64,000 nucleotides of DNA, from the NCBI RefSeq assembly GCF_004010195.1, contig NC_057726.1:68855155-68919154 (forward strand), read 5' to 3'. Source of the DNA: Chiloscyllium plagiosum. Its lineage: Eukaryota. The first letter of the stretch is position 1, and the number at the start of each line of letters is the position of its first letter. The notes beneath the pieces were generated by a model that was not told the DNA's origin, searched no databases, and was given only the letters and a program-made list of their open reading frames with translations. Shown one piece after another: positions 4,578 through 64,000 of this stretch. A program made the position numbers and the translations under genes.

Positions 4578-7500
4578 GTACGTTCAGCTTCCAATCTCCT
4601 TGTCAATCCGACTCTCCATTTTCCCATCTCTCCCGGCACACTCAGTGTCAGTGTCAAAATTTTTCAATTATCCTGACTCTCTCTCCCGCGCTCTCTGACT
4701 CTCTTTATCTGCCTCTCTCCCCTTTTTCTCAGGGTCTCTTAGCTACCAGAGCTGAAAATGTGTTGCTGGAGAAGCGCAGCAGGTCAGGCAGCATCCAAGG
4801 AGCAGGAGAATCGACATTTCGGTCATAAGCCCTTCTTCAGGCTTATGCCCAAAACGTCGATTCTCCTGTTCCCTGGATGCTGCCTGACCTGCTGCGCTTC
4901 TCCAGCAACACATTTTCAGCTCTGATCTCCAGCATCTGCAGACCTCACTTTCTCCTCTTAGCTACCAGCCTGTCACTCCCTGACTTTGGAAAATCTTTAA
5001 ACTTTTAAAACCGACAACTCTGACTAGCCCATAAGCTCTGCTTCTACACTTTGTTCTCTCTGCTACTGTCTTACCAGGTGTTTGTCTTTGCCAAGTCCTG
5101 AAGAATGTTCAGACTTCCCAGTCACTAAAACGCCCAACCAGTTCTAGTTGGACAGAAAGTTTCTGGGAGTGTGGCTGACTGAAGAGACTAGGCCTCAAAT
5201 ATGCAGTGTAAAAGCAAGCTGTACGTGACCCTGCTTCCTCTAGGTGTGCCATTTGAAAAGTGATATTTTAAATGTTGCATCTTAATGCTTTGCTGATATA
5301 TTTGGATTTGGCATCATTTCTGGCGCTGGCAATCTATTGCTCCAAATCACACTGAGATGAGTAAAGGACATTCAGTCCATAGTCTTTTTTTACTCATTGG
5401 CAAATAGGGTTAAGGAGAATCCAGAAGGTTTTTACAAATACATGAAGGACAAAAGGGTAGCTAGGGAGGGATCGGGGCCCCTCAAAGGTCAGCAAGGCAG
5501 CCTTTGTGTGGAGCTGTAGGAGACGAGGGAGATACTAAATGATTATTTTGCATCAGTGTTTACTGTGGAGAAAGTCATGGAAGATATAGAATGGAGGGAA
5601 ATAGATGGTGACACCTTGAAAAATATCAATATTACAGAGGAAGAAGTGCTAAGTGTCTTGAAATGCATAAAAGTGGATAAATCCCCAGGACCTGATCAGG
5701 TGTACCCTAGAACTTTGTGGGAAGCTAGAGAAGTGATTGCTGGGGCCCTTGCTGAGATATCTGTATCATCGATAGTCACAGGTGAGGTGCTGGAAGACTG
5801 GAGGTTGGCTAACATGGTGCCACCATTTAAGAAAGGTGGTAAGGACAAGCCAGGGGACTATAGACCAATGAAACTGACGTCGGTGGTGAGCAGGTTGTTG
5901 GAGGGAATCCTGAGGGACAGGATGTACATGTATCTGGAAAGGCAAGGACTGATTAGGGATAGTCAGCATGGATTTGTGAGTGGGAAATCATGTCTCACAA
6001 ACTTGATTGGGTTTTTTGAAGAAGTAACAAAGACGATTGATGAGGGCAGAGTATAGGACGTGATCTATATGGACTTCAGTAAGGCGTTCGACAAGGTTTC
6101 ACATGGGAGACTGGTTAGCAAGGTTAGATCTCATGGAATACAGGGAGAACTAGCCATTTGGATACAGAACTGGCTCAAAGGTAGAAGATAGAGGGTGGTG
6201 GTGGAGGGTTGTTTTTCAGACTGGAGGCCTGTGACCAATGGAGTGCCACAAAGATCGGTGCTAGGTCCACTACATTTCATCATATTTGATTTGGATGTGA
6301 GCATAAGAGGTACAGTTAGTAAGTTTGCAGATGACACCAAAATTGGAGGTGTAGTGGACTGTGAAGACAGTTACATCAGATTACAATGGGATCTTGATCA
6401 GATGGGCCAATGGGCTGAGAAGTGGCAGATGGAGTTTAATTCAAATAAATGCGAGGTGCTGCATTTTGGGAAAGCAAATCTTAGCAGGACTTATACACTT
6501 CATGGTAAGGTCCTAGGGAGTGTTGCTGAACAAAGAGACCTTGGAGTGCAGGTTCATAGATCCTTGAAAGTAGAGTCGCAGGTAGATAGGATAGTGAAGA
6601 AGGTGTTTGGTATTCTTTCCTTTATTGGTCAGAGTATTGAGTACATGAGTTGGGAGGTCATGTTGCGGCTGTATAGGATGTTGGTTAGGCCACTTTTGGA
6701 ATATTGCGTGCAATTTTGGTCACCTTTCTATCGGAAGGATGTTGTGAAACTTGAAAGAATTCAGAAAAGATTTACAAGGATGTTGCCAGGGTTGGAAGAT
6801 TTTGACTATAGGGAGAGGCTGAAGAGACTGGGGCTGTTTTTCCTGGAGCACCAGAGGCTGAGGGTGACCTTTCAGAGGTTTATAAAATTATGATGGGCAT
6901 GGGGTGGGAGTCCAGAACTAGAAGGCATAGGTTTAAGGTGAGAAGGGAAAGATATAAAAGAGACCTAAGGGGCAACTTTTTCATGCAGAGGGTGGTGCGT
7001 GTATGGAATGAGCTGCCGGAGGAAGTGGTACAGGCTGGTACAATTGTAACATTTAAAAGGCTTCTGGATGGGTATATGAATTGGAATGGTTTAGAGGGAT
7101 ATGGGTTGGGTGCTAGCAAATGGGACTAGATTAGGTTGGGGTATCTGGTCGGCATGGATGGGTTGGACTGAAGGGTCTGTTTCCATGTTGTATATCTCTG
7201 ACACTGTCACTCTATAACCAGGGAGATGCAGTTTTTCACTCTCCAGATCAGTGTCACGTGCAGTTATAGAGTCGTAGAGCTGTACAGCATGGAATTAAAC
7301 CCTTCGGTCCGACTCGTCCATACCGATCAGATATCCCAAATCCCAATTGGCCCATATCCCTCTCAACCCTTCCTAACCATATACCCATCCTGATGCCTTT
7401 TAAATGCTCTAATTGTACCAGCCTCCACCACATCCTTTGGCAGCTCATTCCATAAAGACACTGCCCTCTGCATGAATAGGTTGCCCTTTAGATCCCTTTT

Positions 7501-19500: not shown

Positions 19501-21972
19501 ATCCGTGGCACCGAGGCTCACCACTGAGTCACTGCACTGCCTCAGGTATTGCTCATTCCGGGTGTCAATGTAATAAACCTGATCCACCTCCAATGCGCTT
19601 ACATCCTTTCTTCAATAAGGAGACCAAAACTGGGCACAATAATTGAGATGTGGTCTCACCAATGCTTTCTATATTCATAATGTTCAAGTCCTCTCATGAT
19701 TAAAGGACAGTAACCCATTGGTCTTTCTGATTATTTGCGATAACTGCATGCTCACTCCATCGTGAGCACGGTCCCTTCGACCTGTATGTTAATGTGCGTC
19801 TCAACGTTCTGGTCTATACATTTCACAGTTGAGCACTGGGGAAGCTTGCAAGCTTACTCTTCCTTCAAGATGGAAAATGGGATATTTACTTGGGATGTAG
19901 GCATCATTGGCTGGGCTTTGCTTAACAGAGACATCAGTGACTGAGAGAGCGCAGATTTAAAGTATTTGGGAGATGAGAAAACGTTCCTTAATTTCACCCG
20001 GAGGTGAACTAGGGTCTGGAACTCTCTGCCTGAATGGTGATAGATTGGGAAAGGGGGAAATGCAATGAAACCTGGGTGTCCTTGTGCACTAGTCGCTGAA
20101 AGTACGCAAGCATGCAGGTACAGCAGGCAGTGGGGAAAGTAAACGGTGTGTTGGCCTTCAGAGTGCGAGGATTTGAGTACAGGAGCAGGGATGTCTTGCT
20201 TCAATTGTGCAGGGCTTTGGTGATACCACACCTGGCTTATTGAGTACAGTTTTGGCCTCATTCTCTAAGGAAGGATGTTCTGGCTGTAGAGGGAGTGCAA
20301 CAAAGATTTACCAGATCGATTTCTGAGATGACAGGGTTGACGTATGAGGAGAGACAGGATTGGTTAGGACTTTAATTTACTGCAGTTCACAAGAATCAGG
20401 GTGTTCTCATAGAAACCTCTAAATTTTGACACCACTAAACCGTTTAGATGTAGGAAGGATAATAGACAATAGGTGCAGGAGTAGGCCATTCTGCCCTTCG
20501 AGCCTGCACCACCATTCAATCTGATCATGGCTGATCATCCTTAATCAGTATCCTGTTCCTGCCTTATCTCCATAACCCTTGATTCCACTATCCTTGAGAG
20601 CTTTATCCAACTCTTTCTTAAATGAATCCAGAGACTGGGCCTCCACTGCCCTCTGGGGCAGAGCATTCCACACAGCCACCACTCTCTGGGTGAAGAAGTT
20701 TCTCCTCATCTCTTTCCTAAATGGTCTACCGTATTTTTAAGCTGTGTCCTCTGGTTCGGCACTCACCCATCAGCGGAAACATGTTTCCTGCCTCCAGAGT
20801 ATACAATCCTTTAATAATCTTATGTTCCTGTTAGTCTGGGTGTAGGGCTTGTCTACATTGGTTGCTGTACTGTCTGTCTGTCTCTCGCTCCCTCTCTCAC
20901 ACACGTGCGTCAGGGTCTCTGACTGTGTTTGTAATTGACTTCCAGGTGCCTGCGGAATGACCGTGCCATGACATCCGATATCGCCAGCTATTACCAGCAC
21001 TATGCCAGGGTCAAGGGACTGCAGGAGCACTTTGCATGTGGTACCGTTGTGACTTCAGTGAGGAGGGTTAGTCTGGATTCTAGTGCAGAAAGCCAGGTCA
21101 ATGTGAGCGCAGATAGTCCAGCAGGAGCTCGGGTCTTCAGGCACTCCACCAGCACAAGCCTCTTTGAGGTGATCGGTTCCAGCAAATCCGAGGACGGCTC
21201 AGAAAAGGCTTTCCGCATCTTCGCAGAGAAGGTTGTCTTGGCAACGGGCATGTATGACAGCCCTGCTTGGCTTGGCGTTGATGGTGAAGATCTTCCGTTT
21301 GTTCACCACACGACTTCAGAACTCGACCGAACCCTCAAGGAGCGGGAGACAGGACTGAACTCTGACCCCATTCTGATCATCGGAGGCGGCCTAACCGCCG
21401 CAGACGCTATCATCGCCGCTCACCATGGCAACGTCTCGGTGATCCATGTCTTCCGCAGAGGGGTCAATGACCCAGGGCTGATCTTCAACCAGCTTCCCAA
21501 AGTCATGTACCCAGAGTATCACAAAGTCCACCAGATGATGATCCAACAGTCCTGCACCACCACAGGACCCTACGAAGGGTATCTCAGTCTCCCCAAACAC
21601 CGTATGCTGGCTTTCACCCCAGACAGAAAGTGCATCATTGAGGATCTGATGTCAGCAGAGAAGAAGGTGTTCAATGTCTCCATGGCCTTCATTCTGATTG
21701 GCTCAAATCCTAACTTGACCTTGCTGCCTGATTGCGGAAGGTCACTGGCAATCAACCCGGAGCTCGCTGTTAACAGCAAACGTAACCCCCTTGACGTGGA
21801 TTGCTACACTTATGAGTGTGTGCAGGAACGGGGACTCTATGCCCTGGGCCCGCTGGTGGGAGATCACTTTGTACGTTTTCTGCAAGGAGGGGCTCTGGCT
21901 GTGGCGAGGTCTCTCCTTAAGGAGCGTCAGGGTGCCCAGTTTCAAACTGACAGGCAGCTTTTGATCAGCTGA
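4517..21972 (+). CDS. OSGIN1: OSGIN-family (oxidative stress-induced growth inhibitor 1-like) FAD/NAD(P)H oxidoreductase; join(4517..4577,12819..12955,14826..15017,18510..18601,20946..21972), 1509 nt, 502 aa
   Basis: Five exons splice in frame with GT-AG introns (phases 1,0,0,2). Motifs VVIGNGPSAICLSYLLSG, DLEYLSEGLEGRS, GGAWHSIEGSM, VVLATG, IIGGGLTAAD, FNQLPKVMYPEYHKVHQMM and GPLVGDHFVRFLQGG match the OSGIN family as recalled. SIEGSM and LLRPD favour OSGIN1 over OSGIN2. Confidence 0.88.
4750..4954 (+). mobile_element. Fold-back Penelope-derived short element
   Basis: About 85-bp inverted arms; 14-bp TSD CTCTTAGCTACCAG (4736-4749 / 4955-4968). Confidence 0.85.
5395..7205 (+). mobile_element. 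5'-truncated CR1/HER1-like LINE (ORF2 RT, disrupted)
   Basis: KSPGPD, YRP..LTS, QHGF..KSCLTNL, GVPQ.SVLGP, FADDTKIG and the C-terminal region, with stops and frameshifts. Confidence 0.95.
7265..7915 (-). mobile_element. CR1 LINE 3' fragment, tail-to-tail with the preceding copy
   Basis: WNELPKDVVEAG on - plus 3' UTR. Confidence 0.85.
8031..8283 (+). mobile_element. Young CR1 3' end with (TTCTATG)n tail
   Basis: Near-identical to 51395-51645; flanked by an ATGGTGC direct repeat. Confidence 0.85.
8950..9250 (+). mobile_element. HE1-like SINE
   Basis: GGTTCGATTCC B-box and V-domain. Confidence 0.8.
10185..10715 (+). mobile_element. CR1 3' fragment nested in an older minus-strand CR1 (~9800-10970)
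   Basis: Degenerate ERVQKS..RML / RVVRV peptides; the flanks read as RGDLVEVFNII...ETRTRGH on -. Confidence 0.75.
11368..11962 (-). mobile_element. Possible solo LTR
   Basis: Starts TGTTATGG and ends CCATAA (inverted termini); about 600 bp; minus-strand AATAAA; no coding remnants. Confidence 0.3.
12819..12955 (+). CDS. OSGIN1: OSGIN1-like coding exon 2 (GNGPSAICLSYLLSG...ISIIEQ)
   Basis: CCAG| acceptor, CAG|GTATC donor, 137 nt; lies in ORF 12782..13063. Confidence 0.92.
13865..14440 (+). mobile_element. CR1 3' fragment
   Basis: LRLYRTLERPLL..CVQFW..KLERVQKR. Confidence 0.85.
14826..15017 (+). CDS. OSGIN1: OSGIN1-like coding exon 3 (DLEYLSEGLEGRS...GGAWH)
   Basis: Pyrimidine tract + TAG| acceptor; CAT|GTAAGT donor; 192 nt. 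Confidence 0.93.
15901..16143 (+). mobile_element. HE1-like SINE, internally deleted, TAATC-repeat tail
   Basis: GGCGGCACGGTGGCACAGTGGTTAGCAC head, GGTTCAATTCCC B-box, V-domain. Confidence 0.9.
16650..17150 (-). mobile_element. CR1 3' fragment
   Basis: Reverse complement of the CR1 tail at 500-745. Confidence 0.85.
17688..18015 (+). mobile_element. HE1-like SINE, full length
   Basis: tRNA head, V-domain and tail. Confidence 0.9.
18200..18328 (+). mobile_element. Short Penelope-derived hammerhead element in OSGIN1 intron 3
   Basis: CTGATGA-AGGGC-TTTT-GCCC-GAAACATT followed by the family 3' body. Confidence 0.82.
18510..18601 (+). CDS. OSGIN1: OSGIN1-like coding exon 4 (SIEGSMFTLSLGDWMELPDLPFRDWMRLKR)
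   Basis: Not in the ORF track; read manually. CCCTGACAG| acceptor, AAG|GTAATC donor, 92 nt. Confidence 0.92.
19218..19545 (-). mobile_element. HE1-like SINE
   Basis: Diverged reverse complement of the SINE at 17688. Confidence 0.82.
20035..20830. mobile_element. CR1 RT fragment (+, ~20035-20460) followed by a young CR1 3' end (-, ~20461-20830)
   Basis: Degenerate ALVIPHL..QFW/QRFTR on +; AGGAGTAGGCCATTC tail on -. Confidence 0.75.
20946..21972 (+). CDS. OSGIN1: OSGIN1-like terminal coding exon
   Basis: TTCCAG| acceptor; ORF 20935..21972 with second Rossmann motif IIGGGLTAAD and C-terminal GPLVGD motif; TGA stop. Confidence 0.95.
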
Positions 21973-23484: not shown

Positions 23485-25880
23485 TGATAGAGTTGGACAG
23501 TGCAGAAACAGACCCCTCGGTCCAACCTGTCCATGCTGACCAGATATCTCGAATAAATCCGGTCCCACTTGCTTCCATTTGCCCCATCTCCCTCTGAACC
23601 TTTTCTGTCATGTTCCCGTCCAAATGTACTTTAAATGTTGTAACTGTATCTTTCTACAACTTCCATTGGCAGCTTGTTCCACATAAGAACTACTCTTTGT
23701 GAAAATGTTGCCCCTCAGGACCCTTTTCAAAACATTACCGTCACTTTTTAAAAAATAAATACCCCGAGTATTGAATTCCACCAGCTTACACTCTCACATC
23801 CTCACTAAAGCAAGGAAAGAGATGGCAGAGACATCATCTCTTTATTCACTAAAGCTCCATTGAAGATGGAGTGGTGACCATCTCATCTTATTCCTGCCCA
23901 TGCAAAGAGACATGGGCACTCTTAATTAGCAGTTTTAATATGGTAGGATAGCTTTCACCAAAAGCAAAACATTGAAATATTGGAATACTGTGTGCACTTC
24001 TGGTCTTCCTGCTATGTTGTGAAACTTGAAAGGATTTGGAAAAGATTTACAAGGCAGTGTTTGAGCCACAGGGAGAGGCTGAATAGACTGGTGCTGTTTT
24101 CCCTGGAGCGTTGGAGACTGAGGTTTATAAAATCATGAGGGGCATGAATAGGGTAAACAGACAAGGATTTTTCCCTGGGTTGGGGGGAGTCCAAAACTAG
24201 AGGGTGGAGGTTTAAAATGAGGGGAAAAGCTTTAAAAGAGACCTAAGGGGCAACGTTTCCAAGCAGAGGTGGTGTGTGTATGGAATGAGCTGCCAGAGGA
24301 AGTGGTGGAGGTTGGTATAATTACAAAAGACCTCTGCATGGTATATGAATAGGAAAGGTTCAGAGGGATCTGGGCTGGGTACTGGCAATTGGGACTAGAT
24401 TTATTTGGGATACCTGGTCAGCATAGATGAGTTGGACCGAAGGATCTGTTTCATTGCAGTATATTCTCCATAGTACTAAATGTTCAAAGGTCATCTGGAG
24501 GAAGCAACATAATTAAAAATGGCATAAATTCCAAAAGCCTTAATAAGGCTTAACAAGTAAGGTGGAGTTCTTTGAAAAGAGGAGACAAGGATAGCTGTGT
24601 AGATGTCATACACTTAGATCTTGAAAAGGATTTTAAAACTATGCGAGCAAAAATGATGTGACAACAGTTAGGATATGTGGAATCAGGGTCAAATAACCAC
24701 ATGAATAGAAAATTGGTTGAAAATATGGAAAGCAGAGNNNNNNNNNNNNNNNNNNNNNNNNNNNNNNNNNNNNNNNNNNNNNNNNNNNNNNNNNNNNNNN
24801 NNNNNNNNNNNNNNNNNNNNNNNNNNNNNNNNNNNNNNNNNNNNNNNNNNNNNNNNNNNNNNNNNNNNNNNNNNNNNNNNNNNNNNNNNNNNNNNNNNNN
24901 NNNNNNNNNNNNNNNNNNNNNNNNNNNNNNNNNNNNNNNNNNNNNNNNNNNNNNNNNNNNNNNNNNNNNNNNNNNNNNNNNNNNNNNNNNNNNNNNNNNN
25001 NNNNNNNNNNNNNNNNNNNNNNNNNNNNNNNNNNNNNNNNNNNNNNNNNNNNNNNNNNNNNNNNNNNNNNNNNNNNNNNNNNNNNNNNNNNNNNNNNNNN
25101 NNNNNNNNNNNNNNNNNNNNNNNNNNNNNNNNNNNNNNNNNNNNNNNNNNNNNNNNNNNNNNNNNNNNNNNNNNNNNNNNNNNNNNNNNNNNNNNNNNNN
25201 NNNNNNNNNNNNNNNNNNNNNNNNNNNNNNNNNNNNNTTACCAGGGCAAAAGTGGGACCAATTAGAAACCAAACGAGCAACCTGTTTATGCAGTCAGTGG
25301 ATGTGGGCGAGACCTTAAATGAATCCTTCATATCTGCATTCATTGCCACTGGGCTTGGGGTGGTGAAGTTCAAGAATATGTTACGATTAATAAGGAGGAG
25401 GAATTAGGAATTAGATGCTCTAGTGGACATAAAGTTGCATAAATCTCCAGGGCCCGATGAGATGTATCCTAGGCTGCTATGAGATTGCTGTAGCTTTGGC
25501 AGAGATATTTAATGCTTTGCTGATTGCAGGTGAAGTGCCAGATTACTGGGGAATAGCTAATGTGGTTCCTTTGTTCAAGGAAGGTAGGAGGGATAGGCCA
25601 GGTAATTACAGACTGGTTAGTCTGATGGCAGTTGTGAGGAATTTATTGGAAAAAATGTTCTGAGGGACAGGATTCGTCAAAACTTGGAAAGGCAGGGTTT
25701 AATCAGGGATAGTCAGCACGGATTTGTGAGAGGGAGGTTTTGTCTGTGTAATTGAAGATTCTGAAAAGGTTGATATTGATGAGCTGAGTCCAATTGATAC
25801 AGTTTACACGGACTTCAGTAAGGCCTTTGATAAGGCCCCACATGGAAGACTGCTCCAAAAGGGAAGAGCATATGGCTCAT
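23485..25880. mobile_element. Cluster of CR1 fragments around the first gap (- 23485-23790; + 23980-24465; + 24550-24737; + 25240-25880)
   Basis: GEVPDYWGIANVVPLFKEG..PGNYRLVSL; DFSKAFDK; CR1 tails. Confidence 0.8.
24738..25237. other. Assembly gap (500 N)
   Basis: Run of N. Confidence 1.
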
Positions 25881-41637: not shown

Positions 41638-42137
41638 NNNNNNNNNNNNNNNNNNNNNNNNNNNNNNNNNNNNNNNNNNNNNNNNNNNNNNNNNNNNNNN
41701 NNNNNNNNNNNNNNNNNNNNNNNNNNNNNNNNNNNNNNNNNNNNNNNNNNNNNNNNNNNNNNNNNNNNNNNNNNNNNNNNNNNNNNNNNNNNNNNNNNNN
41801 NNNNNNNNNNNNNNNNNNNNNNNNNNNNNNNNNNNNNNNNNNNNNNNNNNNNNNNNNNNNNNNNNNNNNNNNNNNNNNNNNNNNNNNNNNNNNNNNNNNN
41901 NNNNNNNNNNNNNNNNNNNNNNNNNNNNNNNNNNNNNNNNNNNNNNNNNNNNNNNNNNNNNNNNNNNNNNNNNNNNNNNNNNNNNNNNNNNNNNNNNNNN
42001 NNNNNNNNNNNNNNNNNNNNNNNNNNNNNNNNNNNNNNNNNNNNNNNNNNNNNNNNNNNNNNNNNNNNNNNNNNNNNNNNNNNNNNNNNNNNNNNNNNNN
42101 NNNNNNNNNNNNNNNNNNNNNNNNNNNNNNNNNNNNN
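41638..42137. other. Assembly gap (500 N)
   Basis: Run of N. Confidence 1.
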
Positions 42138-54179: not shown

Positions 54180-57100
54180 CAATAATATGAAACATGCCAT
54201 GCGATGCAATCCAAACTATTTGGAGATACACTGTATACAAAAACAGACTAAACCTTTAGCTCTGCAGGTCGATTCTAAGAGCACAATATTTTTCTTTGGC
54301 TTGTGCATTCATAATTGACCAGGAATCAACAAGTTATGAATCTGTAATGGACCAAACAGGCTTCAGAGAAAATTCTATGTTGTCACCACACGCTGTTATA
54401 TCTGATGAATAAGATGCTCCAAACTGGAAATCCAAATCTGGGTAATTTCAACTGCTCAGAATGCGAATACTTGAAAAGATGTAGTACTGGCACATTAGTT
54501 TCATTTAGCTGCACTCGAAATGAAATTAACATGGGATCATGAGCCAGTTCCATCCATTCCACTATTTAAATGTTATTTAAATGTTATCTCTACCAGTAAT
54601 CTGTCAGTGACAGTGCAGGGTCTGAACCAGAACGGGATCTGTGACAGTGCGGGATATGTACCAGTACTGGGTCGGTGACAGAGTGGGGGGCCTATACCAG
54701 TACTGGGTCTCTGACAGTATGGGGTCTGTACCAGTACTAAGTCTGTGACAGTGCGGGGTCTGTAACAGTACTGGGTCAGTGACAGTGCGGGGTCTGTAGC
54801 AGTACTGGATCTGTGACAGTGTGGAATCTGTACCAGTACTGGGTCTGTGACAGTGTGGAATCTGTACCAGTACTGGGTCTCTGACAGTGTGGGGTCTGTA
54901 CCAGTACTACGTCTGTGACAGTTTGGAGTCTGTACCCGTACTGGGTCTCTGACAGTGCGGATTCTGTAGTAGTACTGCGTCTGTAACAGTACAGGGACTG
55001 TACCAGTACTGGGTCTGTGTCGGCGTGGGGTCATGTATCGGTACTGGATATGTGAAAGTTTGGAGTCTGTACCAGTACTGGGTGTGTGACAGTGTGGGGT
55101 CTGTACTCGTACTGGGTCTAGGACAGTGCTGGGTCTGTACCAGTACTGGGTCTGTGACAGTGAGGGGTCTGCAGCAGTACTCGGTATGTGACAGTGTGGG
55201 GCCTATACTAGTACTGTGTCTGTGACAGTCTGGGGTCTGTACCAGTACTAGGTCTTTGACAGTGTGGGGTCTGTACTCGCACTGGGTCTCTGACAGTATG
55301 GGGTCTGTACCAGTACTGGGTCTGTGACAGTGTGAGGTCTGTACCAAGGCTGGGTGTGTCACAGTGTGGGGTCTGTACCAGCACAAGGTCTGTGTCGGTG
55401 TGAGGTCTGCATCTGCACTTCATATGTGACAGTGTGGAGACTGTCCCAGAACTGTGTCTGTGACAGTGAGGTGTCTGTTCCAGTACTGGGTCTGTGACAG
55501 TGTGGAGTCTGCACCAGTATTGGGTCTGTGACAGTGCGGGGTCTTTACCGGCACTGGGTCTGTGACAGTAAGGGGTCTGTACCAGTACTGGGCCTGTGAC
55601 AGTGAGGGGTCTGTACCAGTATTTGTCTGTGACAGTGTGGAGTCTGTACCAGTACTGGGTCTGTGACAGAGTCGAGTCTGTACCGATACCGGGTCTGCGA
55701 CAGTCTGGTGTCAGTACCAGTACTGGGTCTGTGAAAGTGTGGGGTCTGTACCAGTACTGGGTCTGTGACAATTAGGGGTCTATACCAGTACTGGGTATGT
55801 GACAGTGTGGACTCTGTACCAGTACTGGGTCGGTGACAGTGTGGTGTCTGTACCAATACTGGGTCTGTGACAGTGCAGGGTCTGTACCAGTACTGGGTCT
55901 GTGACAATGTGAGATCTGTAGCAGTACTGGGTCTGTGACAGTGCTGGGTCAGTACCAGTACTGGGTCTGTGATAGTGTGGAGTCTGTACCAGTATTGGGT
56001 CTCTGACAGTGTGGAGTCTGTATCAGTACTAGGTCTGTGACAATGTGGTGTCTGCACCAGTACTGGATCTGTGACTCTGCATGGTCTGTACCAGTACTGG
56101 GTCTGTGACAATTAGGGGTCTGTACCAGTACTGGGTATGTGACAGTGTGGAGTCCGTACCAGTATTTGCCTGTGACAGTGTGGAGCCTGTACCAGTAATG
56201 TGTCTCTGACAGTGCGGGGTCTGTAGCAGTACTGGATCTGTGACCGTGCAGGGCCTGTACCAGTACTGCGCCTGTGTCGGTGTGGGGACTGTACCAGTAC
56301 TGTGTCTGCGACAGTGCAGCGTCTGTACCAGTACTGGCTCTCTAATAGTGTGGATTCTGTACCTGTACTGGCTCGGTGACAGTGTGGAGTCTGTATCAGT
56401 ACTGGGTCTCTGACAGTGTGGGATCTGTAGCAAGACGGTGTCTGTGACAGTGCAGGGATTGTACCAGTACTGGGTGTGTGACAGTGTGGGGTCTGTACCA
56501 GTACTGGGTCTCTGACAGTGTGGAGTCTGCACCAGTAGTGGGTCTGTGACAGTACGGTGTCTGTACCAGTACTGGGTTCTGACAGTACGGGGTCTGTACC
56601 ATACTGCTTCTGTGACAATGCAGGGTCTGTACCAGTACTGGGTCAGTGTCGGTGTGGGGCTGTATCTGTACTGGGTCTCTGACAGTGTGGAATCTGTACC
56701 AGTACTGGGTGTGTGACAGTGTGGGGTCTGCACCAGTAGTGGGTCTCTGACAGTACGGGGTCTGTACCATACTGCTTCTTTGACAATGCAGGGTCTGTAC
56801 CAGTACTGGGTCAGTGTCGGTGTGGGGCTGTATCTATACTGGGTATGTGACAGTGTGGAGTCTGTACCAGTATTGGGTATCTGACAGTGTGGAATCTGTA
56901 TCTGTACTGGGTCTGTGACAGTGTGGCGTCTGTACCAGTACAGGGTACTGGGTACTGTCACATACCCAGTACTAGTATAGACCCCTAATTGTCACAGACC
57001 CAGTACTGGTGCAGACTCCACACTGTCACAGACCCAATACTGGTACAGATTCCACACTGTCAGTACAGGGTGTGTGACAGTGTGAGGTCTGTACCAGTAC

Positions 57101-59072
57101 TAGGTCTCTGACAGTGTGGGGTCTGTACTAGCACTGGGTCTGTGACAGTGAGAGATCTGTACCAGTACTGGGTCTCTGACAGTATGGGATCTGTACCAGT
57201 ACTGGATCAGTGACAGTGCGGGGTCTGAACAGTATTGGGTCTGTGACAGTGCAGGGTCTGTACCAGTACTGGGTCTGTGATAGTGTGGAGTCTGTACCAG
57301 CACTGGCTCTCTAACAGTGTGGAGTCTGTACTTGTACTAGTTCTGTGACAGTATGGAGTCTGTACCAGTATTGGGTCTCTGACAGTGTGGGATCTGTAGC
57401 AGTACTGTGTCAGTGACAGTGCAGGGACTGTACCAGTATTGGGTCTGTGTTGGTGCGGGGTCGTGTATCTGCACTGGATATGTGACAGTGTGGAGTCTGT
57501 ACCAGTACTGGGTCTCTGATAGCGAGGGGTCTGTCCCAGTACTGCATCTATGACAGTGTGGAGTCTGCACCAGTAGTGGGTCTGTGACACTGCGGGGTCT
57601 GTACCAGTACTGGGTCTGTGACAGTGTGGGGTCTGTACCAGTACTGCGTCTCTGACAGTACGGGGTCTGTACCATACTGCTTCTGTGACAATGCAGGGTC
57701 TGTACCGGTACTGGGTCCGTGTCGGTATGTGGTTGTATCTGTACTGGGTATGTGACAGTGTGGAGTCTGTACCAGTATTGGGTCTCTGACATTGTGGAGT
57801 CTGCACCAGTACTGGGTCTGTGACAGTGTGGAGTCTGCACCAGTACTGGGTCTGTGACACTGCAGGGTTTGTACCAGTATTGGGTCTGTGACAATTAGGG
57901 ATCTGTACCAGTACTGGGTATGTGACAGTGTGGAGCCTGTACCTGTACTGGGAGTGTGACAGTGTGGGGTCTGTACCAGTACTAGGTCTCTGACATTGTG
58001 GGATCTGTACCAGTACTGGGTCTGTGACTGTACGGGGTCAGTACCAGTATTGGGTCTGTGACAGTGTGGGCTCTGTACCAGTGCTGGGTCTGTGACAGAG
58101 CGGATCTGTACCAGTACTGGATCTGTACCAGAACTGTGGCTGTGAAAGTGTGGAGTCTGTACCAGTACTGGGTCTGTGACAGTGAGGGATCTGTTCCAGT
58201 ACTGGGTCTGTTACAGTGCGGGCTCTGTACCAGTATTTGGTCTGCGACAGTGCAGTTTCTGTATCAGTACTGTGTCTGTGACAGTGTGGAGTCTGTACCA
58301 GTACTGGGTCTGTGACAGTGTGGGTTCTGTACCAGTACTGCGTCTGTGACAGTGTGGGGTCAGGACTAGTATTGGGTCTGTGACAGTGTGGTGTCTGTTC
58401 TAGTACTGGGTCTGTGACAGTGTGGAGTCTGTGCCAGTACTGGGTCTGCGACAGTGCAGCGTCTGTACCAGTAGTGAGTCTCTGACAGTGTGGTTTTTGT
58501 ACCAGTACTAGGTCTCTGACAGTGCGGGGTCTGTAGCAGTACTGCGTCTGTGACAGTGCAGGGTCTGTGCCAGTACTGGGTCTGTGTCGGTGTGGGGTCT
58601 GTATTTGTACTGGGTATGTGATAGTTGGTTTCTATACCAGTACTGGATCTCTAACAGTGTGGAGTCTGTACCAGTACTGGGTCTGTGACAGTGAGGGGTC
58701 TGTACCAGTACTGGGACTGTGACACTGAGGGGTCGGTAGCAATACCGGGTCTGTGAATGTGTGGAGTCTGTACCAGTAGTGGGTCTGCGACAGTGAGGTG
58801 TCTGTACCAGCACTGGGTCTGTGACAGTGTGGGGTCTTCACCAGTACTGTGTCTGTGACATTGTGGAGTCTCTACCAGTAGTGGGTCTGCGTCAATGTGG
58901 AGTCTGTACCAGTACTGGGTCTTTGACACTGTGTGGTCTGTACCATACTGGATCTCTGACAATGTGGTGTCTGTACCAGTAATGGATCTGTGACAGTGTG
59001 GTGTCTGTACCAGTACTGGGTCTGTGACAGTGTGGTGTCTGTACCAGTAATGGGTCTGTGACAGTACTGGGT

Positions 59073-59612
59073 AAAGTTTGTGAGAAGATTTGTATCTCGG
59101 GTGCTCGTTGTTGTAGTTCTGTTCGCCGAGCTGGGAATTTGTGTTGCAGACGTTTCGTCCCCTGTCTCGGTGACATCCTCAGTGCTAGGGAGCCTCCTAT
59201 GAAGCGCTTCTGTGATGTTTCCTCCAGCATTTATAGTGATTTGTATCTGCCGCTTCCAGTTGTCAGTTCCAGCTGTCCGCTGCAGTGGCCGGTATATTCG
59301 ATCCTGGTCGATGTGTTTGTTGATGTAATCTGTGGGTGAGTGCCATGCCTCTAGGAATTCCCTGGCTGTTCTCTGTTTGGCTTGTCCTATAATAGCAGTG
59401 TTGTCCCAGTCGAACTCATGTTGCTTGTCATCCACGTGCTTGTCATCCACGTGTGTGGCTACTAAGGATAGCTGGTCGTGTCGTTTCGTGGCTAGTTGGT
59501 GTTCATGGATACGGATCATTAGCTGTCTTCCTGTTTGTCCTATGTAGTGTTTTGTGCAGTCCTTGCATGAGATTTTGTACACTACGTTGGTTTTGCTCAT
59601 GCTGGGTATGAC
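59073..59612 (-). mobile_element. Penelope-like 3' fragment (GIY-YIG endonuclease + hammerhead), copy 1
   Basis: NVVYKISCKDCTKHYIGQTGRQL..RIHEH...REFLEAWH; CTGAGGA..GACGAAACGTC. Confidence 0.9.
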
Positions 59613-60007
59613 AAACAGGGAGACAGTGTGGAGTCTGTCCCAGTAGTGGGTCTGTGACAGTGAGGTGTCTGTACCAGCACTGGGTCTGTGACAGTGTGGG
59701 GTCTTCACCAGTACTATGTCTGTGACATTGTGGAGTCTGTACCAGTAGTGGGTCTGCATCAATGTGGAGTCTGTACCAGTACTGGGTCTTTGACACTGTG
59801 TGGTCAGTACCATACTGGATCTCTGACAGTGTGGGGTCAGTACCAGTACTGGGTCTCTGACAATGTGGTGTCTGTACCAGTAATGGATCTGTGACAGTCT
59901 GGGGTCAGTACCAGTACTGGGTCTGTGACAGTGTGGTGTCTGTACCAGTACTGGGTCTGTGACAGTGTGGTGTCTGTACCAGTAATGGGTCTGTGACAGT
60001 ACTGGGT

Positions 60008-60547
60008 AAAGTTTGTGAGAAGATTTGTATCTCGGGTGCTCGTTGTTGTAGTTCTGTTCGCCGAGCTGGGAATTTGTGTTGCAGACGTTTCGTCCCCTGT
60101 CTCGGTGACATCCTCAGTGCTAGGGAGCCTCCTGTGAAGCGCTTCTGTGATGTTTCCTCCGGCATTTATAGTGATTTGTATCTGCCGCTTCCAGTTGTCA
60201 GTTCCAGCTGTCCGCTGCAGTGGCCGGTATATTCGATCCTGGTCGATGTGTTTGTTGATGTAATCTGTGGATGAGTGCCATGCCTCTAGGAATTCCCTGG
60301 CTGTTCTCTGTTTGGCTTGTCCTATAATAGCAGTGTTGTCCCAGTCGAACTCATGTTGCTTGTCATCCACGTGCTTGTCATCCACGTGTGTGGCTATTAA
60401 GGATAGCTGGTCGTGTCGTTTCGTGGCTAGTTGGTGTTCATGGATACGGATCATTAGCTGTCTTCCTGTTTGTCCTATGTAGTGTTTTGTGCAGTCCTTG
60501 CATGAGATTTTGTACACTACGTTGGTTTTGCTCATGCTGGGTATGAC
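60008..60547 (-). mobile_element. Penelope-like 3' fragment (GIY-YIG + hammerhead), copy 2
   Basis: Near-identical to copy 1 at +935 bp. Confidence 0.9.
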
Positions 60548-61793
60548 AAACAGGGAGACAGTGTGGAGTCTGTCCCAGTAGTGGGTCTGTGACAGTGAGG
60601 GGTCTGTACCAGTAATGGGTTTGTGACAGTGAGGGGTCTGTTCCAGTACTGGATCTGTGACAGTGAGGGGTCTGTGCCAGTAATGGGTCTGGTAGCCAGA
60701 CAGATAATGTATGTCAACCAGACATGGAAAAAACCATATTATTAGCGTATTATTGACATTGGAACTCTTGTTCAGTAAATTGAACAGGTTGCCGAAAAGT
60801 AGTGAGAACAAAGTAAATACACCGCAGTTTAACTGATATGTACCAACAAGTATTAGCTTTAACAGGCAGTGCAATGTTTTGAAACGTGCCTAATTTTTAA
60901 TTGTATCATCTCTGTTCCACTTAGAAATTGTCTTTGGATGTCGATTGAACAGATACAATTTCGCAACAAAATAATGTAAAACTGCAAGAAAGAGCAATGA
61001 CCGGTTGTATTGCCCGATTCGCTTCTTTTCTGCTGAAGAGAGCAACGGTGTTTTTACATCCCAGAATGGCTGCCTAAATAACCGTGAATGTGAGACTAGT
61101 ACGCGTTATGTAAGAGAGGGAGGGAAACTGAATGTGTGCGTGTGTCTATCGCTATGCATATGTGTATGAGGAGAGAGTAATGTGTGAAAGAGTAACAGAG
61201 ATAGGTATCTGAGTTAGAGCGTGGTGTGAGTATGAAATAGTTTAGAGATGGGGCAGTAACTCAAAGTGAGATTTGCGATACACAGTGCACCTGAACTACT
61301 AAAAAACCGAAAATAAAAACTGGATGCTCATAATTAGAGATATCCCTGTATGAGACGCAGGCAGTGAAAGATTAAGGTGCGTGTGGGTGAATGGTGGTTA
61401 GGCGAATGAGAGAGGGAGAGCTGCTTGTTGGACGCAGCACTAATTAAGAGATAATTACTGGATAAGTGAGTGTGAGATCCCTGCGCAATGAACAACGGCT
61501 GAGAAATGATTGCGATAGCAACACGGTCTGAATGATGATACTGTAAACGAGTGCTGCATGTGTAAGAGGCAGCAAGGAGAAATTGAAGTGTCAGGTGACA
61601 GTGATGATGTGGAGGTGGCGGTTGGATTGGGTGGACAAGTCGCACGACACCGAGTTACAGTCCAACAGGTTTATGTGAAATCTTATGCTCCCTGGTCAGG
61701 ACTTCACCTGGTGTCGTGTGACACAGTGAGTGCGAGGTGGGTGTTAGCACTGAACGACACGTTAGCATTCAGTGATAGGGTTCATTTTTGTTC

Positions 61794-61805
61794 TTACAGT
61801 ACGTA
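61794..61805 (-). CDS. Probable last coding exon of the IgSF receptor (YVL-stop)
   Basis: Branch-like CTGAC + pyrimidine tract + TTCAG| followed by TAC GTA CTG TAA in phase 0; 161-nt intron. Confidence 0.5.
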   Translation of the reverse strand, partial: YVL

Positions 61806-61966
61806 CTGAATTGATAAGAAAGTAAAGGGTCAGCTAATGTCTCGCACATCCATCCGTGCAGATACCGAATGTCACTAATGAAGGATGATGTAATTTGTTT
61901 CCTGTATTTAAAAAAAAATTCCTTTAATCTCGTTACAATGATGGAAGCAACAAATGATTCCCTTAC

Positions 61967-62058
61967 CTTTAAATGATCCACAATGAAGGCGGTCCCCAAC
62001 ACCATCACCACGATCCCCAAAATCAAACGGAAGATGTTAATGGTGTGGAACCGGCCAG
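61967..62058 (-). CDS. Transmembrane exon of the IgSF receptor (AGRFHTINIFRLILGIVVMVLGTAFIVDHLK)
   Basis: TCTATCCTTCAG| acceptor in phase 1 with the C1 exon; AAG|GTAAGG donor; about 21 hydrophobic residues with an Arg near the N-terminal end. Confidence 0.82.
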
Positions 62059-62449
62059 CTGAAGGATAGAGATTCAATGAGGAAATATAGAGAAACTATT
62101 AGACGCAGAATGTTTGTGTGTATGTCTTTACATAAAGGGAGGGAGAACAACAGAGAGGGAACTGGAGACAACCAATGTGTTAGACACAGAACTGTGCGCT
62201 TGAGAGTTTACTACAATGCAGCTGAGGGGTAGTACTAAAATGCCCAGAACCTTTCTCCATGAGTTCCGCGGAGTTTACACTGAACATTGTATACATCAGG
62301 GAACCTCAAGAATATTCTCCCCTTGGTCTTTTATTGGATCTGGTCTCTGACACTGCTAAACGGGAGCTAAAGCTAATTCTCATCCTCGCGTTAATTTCTA
62401 ATGCAGTGCTCGATGGTAACAATACCCAGTCAACGGAAAAGAGGAAGCT

Positions 62450-62625
62450 GGCATTTACATAGCGCCGTTCAGGCCCCTTGAAAGCCAATGAGCTACTCGA
62501 AGTGTGCTCGCCGCTGTAATAAAGAAAATGTGACGACCATTTTGTATACGATTTCCCAAAAAGCAATGTGAGAGTGAGCAGATCATTTGATTCTGTCGTG
62601 TGGATTGGCAGGATAAATATTCGCT
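62450..62625 (-). mobile_element. Deu-domain SINE (SacSINE1/AmnSINE1-like) 3' fragment in an IgSF intron
   Basis: Minus strand AATATTTATCC..CACATTGCTTTTGGGA..CATTGGCT..GGCGCTATGTAAATGC resembles the DeuSINE core and tail as recalled. Confidence 0.55.
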
Positions 62626-62930
62626 TAGGACTGATTTATTATCATTAGGGATGGAACCGCGTGTCAGACAGGGGAACTGGGTATTGATCTGCTAATCCCG
62701 AACATGGCGCGGATTGAATGCAGTTTGTGGTCATTTTAAGCTGACGGCTAAGCAATACTTTAAAATATTGGCGTCAAGTTTGATTTCGGCTGGAGTCCCG
62801 AGTGTGCGGGAATGAATCGGACCCTTGTATTTTTAATGTTGAAGATTAGTGTAGACAGAAATCCCGTCGCTGGTTCCAGTATATAACAAAGATCGTGATT
62901 AAATCAATACTGAAGACCCGTCGCCCTTAC

Positions 62931-63212
62931 CGTGGTTTGGAACCGTGTAGCTGATATTTGCCGGGACGCCGAGTGCGACGTGAGAAACCTGGCAGGTATA
63001 GACTGAGCCCCTCTCCGGAAGACTGAGCTCGCTGGAAACTTGAAATAAACCCTCTTCGTTTAGGATTTTCCTGATGCTGATGCCAGACGTGATTTCGGAG
63101 AAATTTTTATACCACACGAGTTCAAACTGCCCCGGGAAGAAGCCAGCTGTTGTGCAGAGGAGAGCGAGGAAGGGCGAGTCGAGGCGGGTTATCTTCAGCG
63201 GGGTTGGTGGCA
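62931..63212 (-). CDS. Ig C1-set domain exon of an IgSF receptor (gene 5' end lies outside the window)
   Basis: LLCTTAGFFP..ELVWYKN..GLFQVSSELS..YTCQVSHVAL is the C1-set signature; TTCCAG| acceptor, G|GTAAGG donor, symmetric phase 1-1, 282 nt. Confidence 0.9.
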
Positions 63213-64000
63213 CTGGAACACAATAACATTCAATAAATCAATATCGGAAGTTGTGTGTGGGTTGGACAGAAGACAGAACAGCCTGTCAAAAGGCACAGGC
63301 ATTTCTTGAATTTTGGAGGGAATTCTTTTTTTTAAATCAACCTATTAATGCTAACAACTAAAGTTTCAATTTTGAAAGTTAGAATCGATGTACGTTCGTT
63401 AAACCTCCCCGTCCTTTGCATTCGGATAAAAAGTGGAGATAAATAGAGTGGACCATGTCAGAATGGGCAGCCGCTGATAATGTTGGACGAGACACATACT
63501 CTACACACGCAGCTCGGAGTCTGCATTGGATTAACAGTGGTCAAATCAGACAAAGTCAGAGTCCATACTAAAAAAAAGCGGTTTCATCAGACACCCTCGG
63601 TCTGTTGTCCTTTGAACAATCACTGGTTCAATCGGACACAGGCAATCCAGAGTCTATTAAATGCTTACTTCTTTTCCACGAGACATTCTCAATCCATAGT
63701 TTGTATTGAATTCTAATTGGTCCCATCTAAGTCTCAAACCCAAGTCCAAGTCCAATGAGATGCTCCGCAGAGACGGGACTTTCTCAGGGACACTATCCAT
63801 GGCACTGCACACAAGGCCGTTGAGAAGAAACAGGGAAGACACAAGACTGGTTGGAAGCGAGCTCAAGTAATCTCACCGCTGTCAAGGAGGCAAAACGTGT
63901 TGCGCCACTCCACCCAGGCAACACTTTCTGCACTAAGGACACCAAGACACAAGTGTAATGTGCACCCATAATGTTGCAAAGAAAGGAGTTTCAGGATTTT

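Follow-up and report, generated by a model that had tools for sequence, protein, structure and literature searches.

Receptors with an N-x-x-R motif at the start of the transmembrane (TM) helix include LILRA, NKp46/NCR1, GPVI, FcalphaRI, OSCAR, chicken ggFcR and the XFL, ILR and SLAM-like receptors of Xenopus. They combine this motif with an acidic residue at the C-terminal end of the helix, a short tail and inhibitory partners with an uncharged TM (PMC2413239, PMC4536121, PMC6557307; here and below, cited papers are drawn on in excerpt). In Xenopus, receptors with such TMs require or bind FcR-gamma (PMC2413239); across mammals, chicken and Xenopus, the N-x-x-R TM favors association with FcR-gamma (PMC2413239, PMC4536121). 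The C-end acid is listed among the features of this TM type, as are a DYT motif before the helix and “Asp at -2” (PMC6557307). The initial annotation of the locus described here linked the motif to receptors with C2-type domains; it is not limited to the C2-domain LRC receptors, as the Xenopus FCRL and CD2/SLAM families also use N-x-x-R TMs (PMC4536121). The available excerpts of PMC2413239, PMC4536121, PMC6557307 and PMC4016189 record neither N-x-x-R TMs nor LRC/FCRL genes for cartilaginous fish, and FcR-gamma, FCRL and LRC genes were not found in the shark assemblies of 2014 (excerpt of PMC4016189). The gene of the bamboo shark Chiloscyllium plagiosum analyzed here shares with these receptors the N-x-x-R at the helix start, the C-end acid, a likely short tail and inhibitory partners with uncharged TMs. 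Unlike theirs, its ectodomain is V(J)-C1 rather than C2 type, DYT is absent and the Asn is not family-wide.

Other described systems resemble the shark gene in their ectodomains or in their pairing. PRARP has the features of a non-rearranging VJ-C1 protein, and NKp30 has no C1 domain. The non-rearranging VJ(-C1) genes PRARP, the VJC1 of Xenopus and reptiles, NKp30 and UrIg/UrIg2 (PMC10751288, PMC12227049) resemble the shark gene in their unsplit VJ plus C1 and antigen-receptor-like layout; both PMC10751288 and PMC11599192 mention PRARP and VJC1 by name. The SIRP family (SIRP-alpha, 2wng; SIRP-gamma, 4i2x) has a V domain with a J-like strand followed by C1, matched activating and inhibitory ectodomains, and multi-Tyr tails (PMC2785349, PMC3716694), as does the shark family, and is placed at Tetrapoda in the excerpt of PMC13262535. 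Homogenization of ligand-binding domains is reported for the mammalian pairs KLRC, Ly49 and PIR (PMC3210942). The merohomogenized NKG2/KLRC, Ly49, NKR-P1 and PIR systems resemble the shark family in that ligand-binding exons are homogenized and signaling exons are type specific (PMC3210942); they are mammalian lectin or C2-type receptors, whereas the shark family is V-C1 and its evidence is at the protein level.

The window, meaning the whole 64-kb stretch of C. plagiosum DNA that was analyzed, contains the 3' portion of a receptor gene, with a C1 exon and an Arg-bearing TM exon that both read open (Table 1). The C1 exon matches Pfam C1-set with an E value of 3.6e-11 (43.7 bits; cut-off, 21) and carries all of the hallmarks that the excerpt of PMC2785349 gives for C1 domains, (F/Y)(F/Y/H)P (here FFP), 13 residues from Cys to Trp, and CxVxH; hallmarks and Pfam score alike place it in the C1 set. 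Its in-phase splicing to an N-x-x-R TM exon, as initially annotated, is borne out by the sequence, the splice sites and the RefSeq model.

Table 1. Features of the 64-kb window (positions within the window).
Feature	Position	Strand	Remarks
C1-set Ig exon	63212-62931	minus	282 nt; phase 1-1; AG/GT; stop-free
Intron, C1 to TM	62930-62059	minus	872 nt; GT-AG; junction also in RefSeq model P0003
Stalk and TM exon	62058-61967	minus	92 nt; phase 1-0; AG/GT
TM Asn codon	62038-62036	minus	
TM Arg codon	62029-62027	minus	likely adaptor-binding residue
Asp codon at TM C-end	61978-61976	minus	
Likely last coding exon, YVL-stop	61805-61794	minus	predicted; preceded by a 161-nt intron
Putative 3' UTR	61793-60896	minus	inferred; ends at ATTAAA at 60901
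High-copy short repeat	61637-61682		inside the putative 3' UTR
34-bp satellite	54587-60691		about 6 kb; just downstream of the receptor gene
565-bp unit, two copies	59061-59625; 59996-60560		inside the satellite; 99.3% identical
Assembly gaps	24738-25237; 41638-42137		500 bases each
Alternative last exon of RefSeq model	39648-39553	minus	31 codons; AG acceptor; tblastn, 100%
OSGIN large last-type exon	20935-21972	plus	Pfam Pyr_redox_2/3; Atlas OSGIN1/2
Two reverse-transcriptase fragments	5520-6890	plus	broken retroelement

The TM exon encodes F-H-T-I-N-I-F-R, 16 uncharged residues and then D-H-L-K, and its most hydrophobic 19-residue segment (mean, 2.61) includes the Arg. Sixteen uncharged residues are too short to span a bilayer, and the Arg is predicted to lie inside the bilayer because just this number separates it from the Asp. 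In an AlphaFold model of the sevengill counterpart P0011 (pLDDT, 91), the Arg is likewise predicted to lie inside a helix, at residues 230 to 256. In the window and the sevengill counterparts alike, the Arg of N-x-x-R sits close to the N-terminus of the helix, and the C-end acid of the N-x-x-R type is present, whereas neither the DYT motif nor “Asp at -2” occurs in the window TM. The pattern N-x-x-R, 16 uncharged residues and D/E, which was picked after the locus had been seen, has a single match across all six frames of the window and none in 40 shuffles. A profile of the TM returned nothing meaningful from the PDB. A DNA contig from public run X1, possibly the source of the assembly itself, covers 61176 to 63000 without gaps and with six differences, leaving the TM and YVL exons unchanged. 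Read depth, which is not a measure of copy number, is raised over the C1 exon, and paralogue-type letters are present there.

The locus corresponds to RefSeq LOC122558644 (XP_043563377.1; P0003), with C1 and TM exons that are 100% identical. The gene is thus already a RefSeq model, though one with no meaningful name. The model adds a V domain with a J-like G-N-G-T-K-L strand, located outside the window, and has neither a leader nor the start of V. The V and leader exons had been expected beyond the window: V is found in the RefSeq model and a leader in full-length relatives such as the sevengill models. Searches by tblastn with 10 family proteins detected no V exon in 63213 to 64000 and no inhibitory TM or tail exons within the window. 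The supposed chondrichthyan origin was correct, as the gene is a C. plagiosum RefSeq gene with shark relatives. The Heptranchias (sevengill) models P0011 and P0012 are complete (leader-VJ-C1-TM), and P0011 is 59% identical to the bamboo-shark protein over 209 residues. The sevengill TM contains N-F-C-R and V-D-H-L-K and is 57% identical to the window TM exon over 32 residues. A second Heptranchias gene, P0017, has a model that is 21 residues longer, and the epaulette-shark counterpart P0027 has no V domain and ends off-frame after the TM. Foldseek with the P0011 model gave matches to Ig light chains and TCR beta, with 18 to 24% identity, and did not separate families.

The RefSeq model and the window differ in how the receptor ends. 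The last exon of the RefSeq model is 22 kb from the YVL exon and holds no match to a Y-x-x-hydrophobic ITIM, and a counterpart is absent from the sevengill models; it is probably a prediction artifact or a minor form. The acceptor of the predicted YVL exon has a branch-like CTGAC at -28, a pyrimidine tract and CAG. The short YVL tail is preferred over the RefSeq ending because sevengill model P0011 terminates in a four-residue tail and a catshark family member has YV directly after the TM, matching the position of the YVL exon. The receptor tail is therefore likely to be three residues, YVL. The initial annotation of almost no tail gains from the sevengill tail and the splice signals, but the 31-codon ending of the RefSeq model stands against it. 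The ATTAAA at the end of the putative 3' untranslated region is the sole AATAAA/ATTAAA hexamer from the stop down to 54000. The short repeat within this region attracts every mapped RNA read. Two single-cell runs, sampled at 2% and 6% of their reads, and one contig set have nothing on the exons, a coverage that says nothing about expression.

Sequence comparison places LOC122558644 in an elasmobranch VJ-C1 multigene family, in which all of the relatives analyzed are computed gene models. An inhibitory-type relative used as the query retrieved 48 representatives at an E value of ≤1e-30 and 156 at ≤1e-10, and filters for length, C1 pattern and TM helix kept 53 of 115 candidate proteins and dropped 62. 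Full-length relatives have only the leader-VJ-C1-TM layout. V and J are uninterrupted in the gene models, and the J-like motifs have the F/W of FGxG in 0 of 70 cases and a glycosylation sequon in 61 of 70. The annotation as a non-rearranging (V)-C1 receptor agrees with the RefSeq and sevengill models, which are VJ-C1-TM with unsplit V and J. Because accessions are near-consecutive and contig sizes equal, the genes are probably clustered within each species. RefSeq names across the family are automatic and inconsistent (tapasin-related-like, PTPNS1-like, CD276 homolog, NCR3LG1-like and H-2 class I-like).

The short-tail Arg TM type of the window is found in 10 of the 53 TM-bearing members, from seven shark species (two Chiloscyllium species, Hemiscyllium, Heterodontus, Carcharodon, Scyliorhinus and Heptranchias); eight were assigned by rule and two were added by hand, namely P0027, which has the Arg but ends off-frame, and P0086, which has Gln instead of Arg. 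The Arg occupies one register in 9 of the 10, the exception being P0086, and D/E is present at Arg+17 in all nine rows scored, but Asn at -3 is present in only four of 10. Across the family, the N-x-x-R assignment accordingly stands for the Arg and the C-end acid and does not extend to the Asn. Tails with at least two Y-x-x-L/I/V/Q motifs occur in 28 of the 43 other members versus one of nine of the Arg type, and the closest inhibitory-type relatives have LTYASL ITIM matches in the tail. These tails, together with near-identical ectodomains, support the earlier suggestion of a paired family with ITIM-bearing paralogues.

Five further family members (P0064, P0034, P0051, P0057 and P0058) also carry an Arg close to the TM start, although their TMs are otherwise of the neutral type, and in four of the five the tail is ≤35 residues long; skate P0064 has N-x-x-R, yet its TM groups with a neutral TM. 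Activating forms may have had more than one origin in the VJ-C1 family. The coelacanth (Latimeria) protein P0174 is V-C1-TM with two Tyr motifs and matches the family profile with an E value of 1.4e-28. Another V-C1 family of elasmobranchs, comprising P0149, P0159 and P0184 to P0190, has an IEIPPP loop and Pfam PF15910, which we take to be CD28-like.

Ectodomains and TMs of the family group differently. In Heptranchias, V identity across types is 99% (R1-I1) and 98% (R2-I2), where R is Arg type and I inhibitory type, versus 87% (R1-R2) and 89% (I1-I2) within types. Within the bamboo shark, the identity of Arg and inhibitory copies is 91% for V and 85% for C1 but falls to 33% for the TM region, whereas the Arg copies of bamboo shark and sevengill have similar identities for V (60 to 61%) and for the TM region (57%). 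In the C1 tree, the 10 Arg-type rows need 10 changes, at least six of them forced by starred branches, and holding these rows as one clade is rejected (p-AU, 1.4e-68). In the TM tree, which has 37 columns and is partly circular, the Arg-type rows form one clade (SH-aLRT, 95); clade support is 82 after the Arg, acid and His columns are masked and P0027 is excluded. The 16-residue TM cores compared in fixed register score 31.7, versus 11.7 ± 1.3 for shuffled cores and 17.1 to neutral TMs. Clustering of ectodomains by species or pair and of TM exons by type reads as the signature of paired receptors, and the two groupings suggest a single old TM exon behind many ectodomains, each near an inhibitory-type relative. 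As in paired receptors, the family combines probably linked genes, matched ectodomains and opposite TM/tail types.

With a probability of roughly two in three, we read the locus as the C1, Arg TM and likely three-residue tail of a VJ-C1 receptor that is the likely activating partner of ITIM paralogues with near-identical ectodomains and that would dock a zeta-family ITAM adaptor (CD3-zeta or FcR-gamma). The TM Arg would pair with an acidic TM residue of the zeta-family dimer, as in Xenopus and mammalian N-x-x-R receptors, the V domain would share its ligand with the inhibitory partner, and the likeness of the two ectodomains would be maintained by gene conversion or repeated recombination. A monomeric receptor is predicted from the J-like strand, in which the F/W of FGxG is missing and a glycosylation sequon is mostly present. 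In other paired receptors, the activating copy counters pathogens or altered self engaging the inhibitory copy; by analogy, the activating shark copy would oppose pathogens or altered self bound by its inhibitory counterpart. The zeta-family ITAM dimer, CD3-zeta or FcR-gamma, is predicted by analogy. In the excerpted single-cell marker table of PMC11372145, cd247 is listed for bamboo-shark T cells and an fcer1g row is missing from the shark sheet, the latter a weak indication. CD3-zeta is as likely a partner as FcR-gamma because the excerpt of PMC4016189 reports FcR-gamma missing in sharks.

There is a slim chance that the gene is a shark SIRP-beta orthologue, that is, a SIRP with a single C1 and with Arg in place of the Lys of the SIRP-beta TM. 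The V(J)-C1 layout, paired organization and multi-Tyr tails are all SIRP-like, several family members are named PTPNS1-like in RefSeq, the SIRBL cluster is among the Atlas neighbors (0.96), and SIRP-alpha (2wng) is the top non-Ig match of the family profile (E value of 8.6e-32, summed over domains). A single member, however, reaches only 2.2e-8 against SIRP-alpha, equal to the level for MHC class II beta, whereas the multi-C1 protein P0132, which is 29% identical to P0003, reaches 6.3e-43. A V-TM-tail profile has no SIRP in the best 60 of 382 matches, and family C1 domains lie apart from SIRP-like C1 domains (support of 87, not starred); when distant proteins are included, trees of V and of C1 are weakly resolved at depth. 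The flanking gene is OSGIN, which to our knowledge is not a neighbor of mammalian SIRPs. LOC numbers near the locus belong to OSGIN1-like, FOXC2-like, GOT2 and GLG1, presumably genes of human 16q in a region paralogous to chromosome 20, so the shark gene may be a sister of SIRP that arose by whole-genome duplication. V with a J-like strand followed by C1 is shared with SIRP (V being taken from the RefSeq model, outside the window), but the V-C1-C1 ectodomain of SIRP is not, as the C1 exon joins the TM exon directly, giving one C1 rather than two. The TM has Arg near the helix start and no Lys inside the helix, unlike SIRP-beta with its use of DAP12 (PMC3716694). Within a pair, the shark receptor would act much as SIRP-beta or LILRA does, but its membership of SIRP is not supported by these comparisons.

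Two further explanations accept the Arg TM type and differ over what this copy or its Arg does. It is improbable, though less so than SIRP orthology, that the bamboo-shark copy was recently silenced or is decaying, with the activating type genuine in the family and this locus making no working receptor. Both the C1 and the TM exon have an uninterrupted frame and canonical splice sites, the TM and YVL exons are unaltered in the public DNA contig, and the TM is still 57% identical to that of a distant shark, unlike the TM of its own paralogue. On the other side, the RefSeq model lacks a leader, has a truncated V and ends in an odd, distant exon, and the epaulette-shark counterpart has no V and ends off-frame; the incomplete model and this off-frame end may therefore reflect decay in this family of sharks. 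LOC122558644 is also in none of the rows of the marker-table supplements searched, within the part available of the bamboo-shark single-cell study. Very unlikely is an Arg that recruits no ITAM adaptor, which would make the receptor a non-signaling decoy or competitor or give it another partner, such as DAP10 or DAP12. DAP12 partners carry a mid-helix Lys; the shark Arg keeps the same register in nine of 10 members, from what are presumably five shark orders, and CD3-zeta is present in the bamboo shark. The Gln at the Arg position in P0086 would fit such a receptor, as would the reported absence of FcR-gamma from sharks (excerpt of PMC4016189) and the surface expression of N-x-x-R receptors that often occurs without FcR-gamma (excerpt of PMC6557307).

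Apart from the activating VJ-C1 receptor preferred here, other identities were rejected. Rearranging Ig/TCR is excluded by the lack of the FGxG F/W in 70 J-like motifs and by the continuity of V and J. MHC class I/II, tapasin and B7 are excluded since the relatives are leader-VJ-C1-TM, with J and with no peptide-binding or tapasin N-terminal domain; MHC class II beta, tapasin, B7-H3/B7-H6 and Ig light chain, which appear among best matches and RefSeq names, were likewise rejected by architecture. UrIg/UrIg2 are multi-C1, disulfide-linked dimers of the MHC or antigen-receptor complex, whereas the shark family is tandem, paired and beside OSGIN, and they are different genes (excerpt of PMC12227049). 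Distant V-C1 proteins P0125, P0130, P0131 and P0144 have N-x-x-K at the TM start, are weakly resolved in trees against the shark family and possibly belong on the tetrapod VJC1/PRARP side. The multi-C1 proteins P0132, P0126, P0141 and P0115 are close to SIRP-alpha/gamma; P0115 has a TM Arg and P0141 a four-Tyr tail.

Pfam searches of 380 open frames of ≥55 amino acids, most of the satellite excluded, found only this C1, the OSGIN exon and the two reverse-transcriptase fragments. The OSGIN exon, the sole neighbor gene in the window, lies tail to tail with the receptor gene at a distance of about 40 kb. The twin 565-bp copies may be a recent duplication or an assembly artifact.

Paired receptors, Arg TMs and V-C1 ectodomains are each known; their combination and its depth are new. 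No description of a shark VJ-C1 paired family or of shark N-x-x-R TMs was found in the literature searched, a set outside which most subscription journals, including those of the main VJ-C1 papers, fall. A bolder and rather unlikely extension is that an ancient Arg-TM cassette in an elasmobranch paired cluster was repeatedly refitted with the ectodomain of its inhibitory neighbor. Such a receptor would signal through CD3-zeta, because sharks may lack FcR-gamma, and would provide a pre-RAG, TCR-like model and the oldest N-x-x-R record, before LRC, FCRL and SLAM. Little is mapped so far of the paired innate receptors of sharks, and the family offers probable activating and inhibitory partners whose matched VJ-C1 ectodomains are antigen-receptor-like, a pairing that appears to be kept across sharks. 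It would extend both the N-x-x-R/C-end-acid TM type and ectodomain homogenization to cartilaginous fish. With this family it can also be tested directly which ITAM adaptor would serve a VJ-C1 receptor that does not rearrange, a question that bears on the origin of TCR-type signaling.
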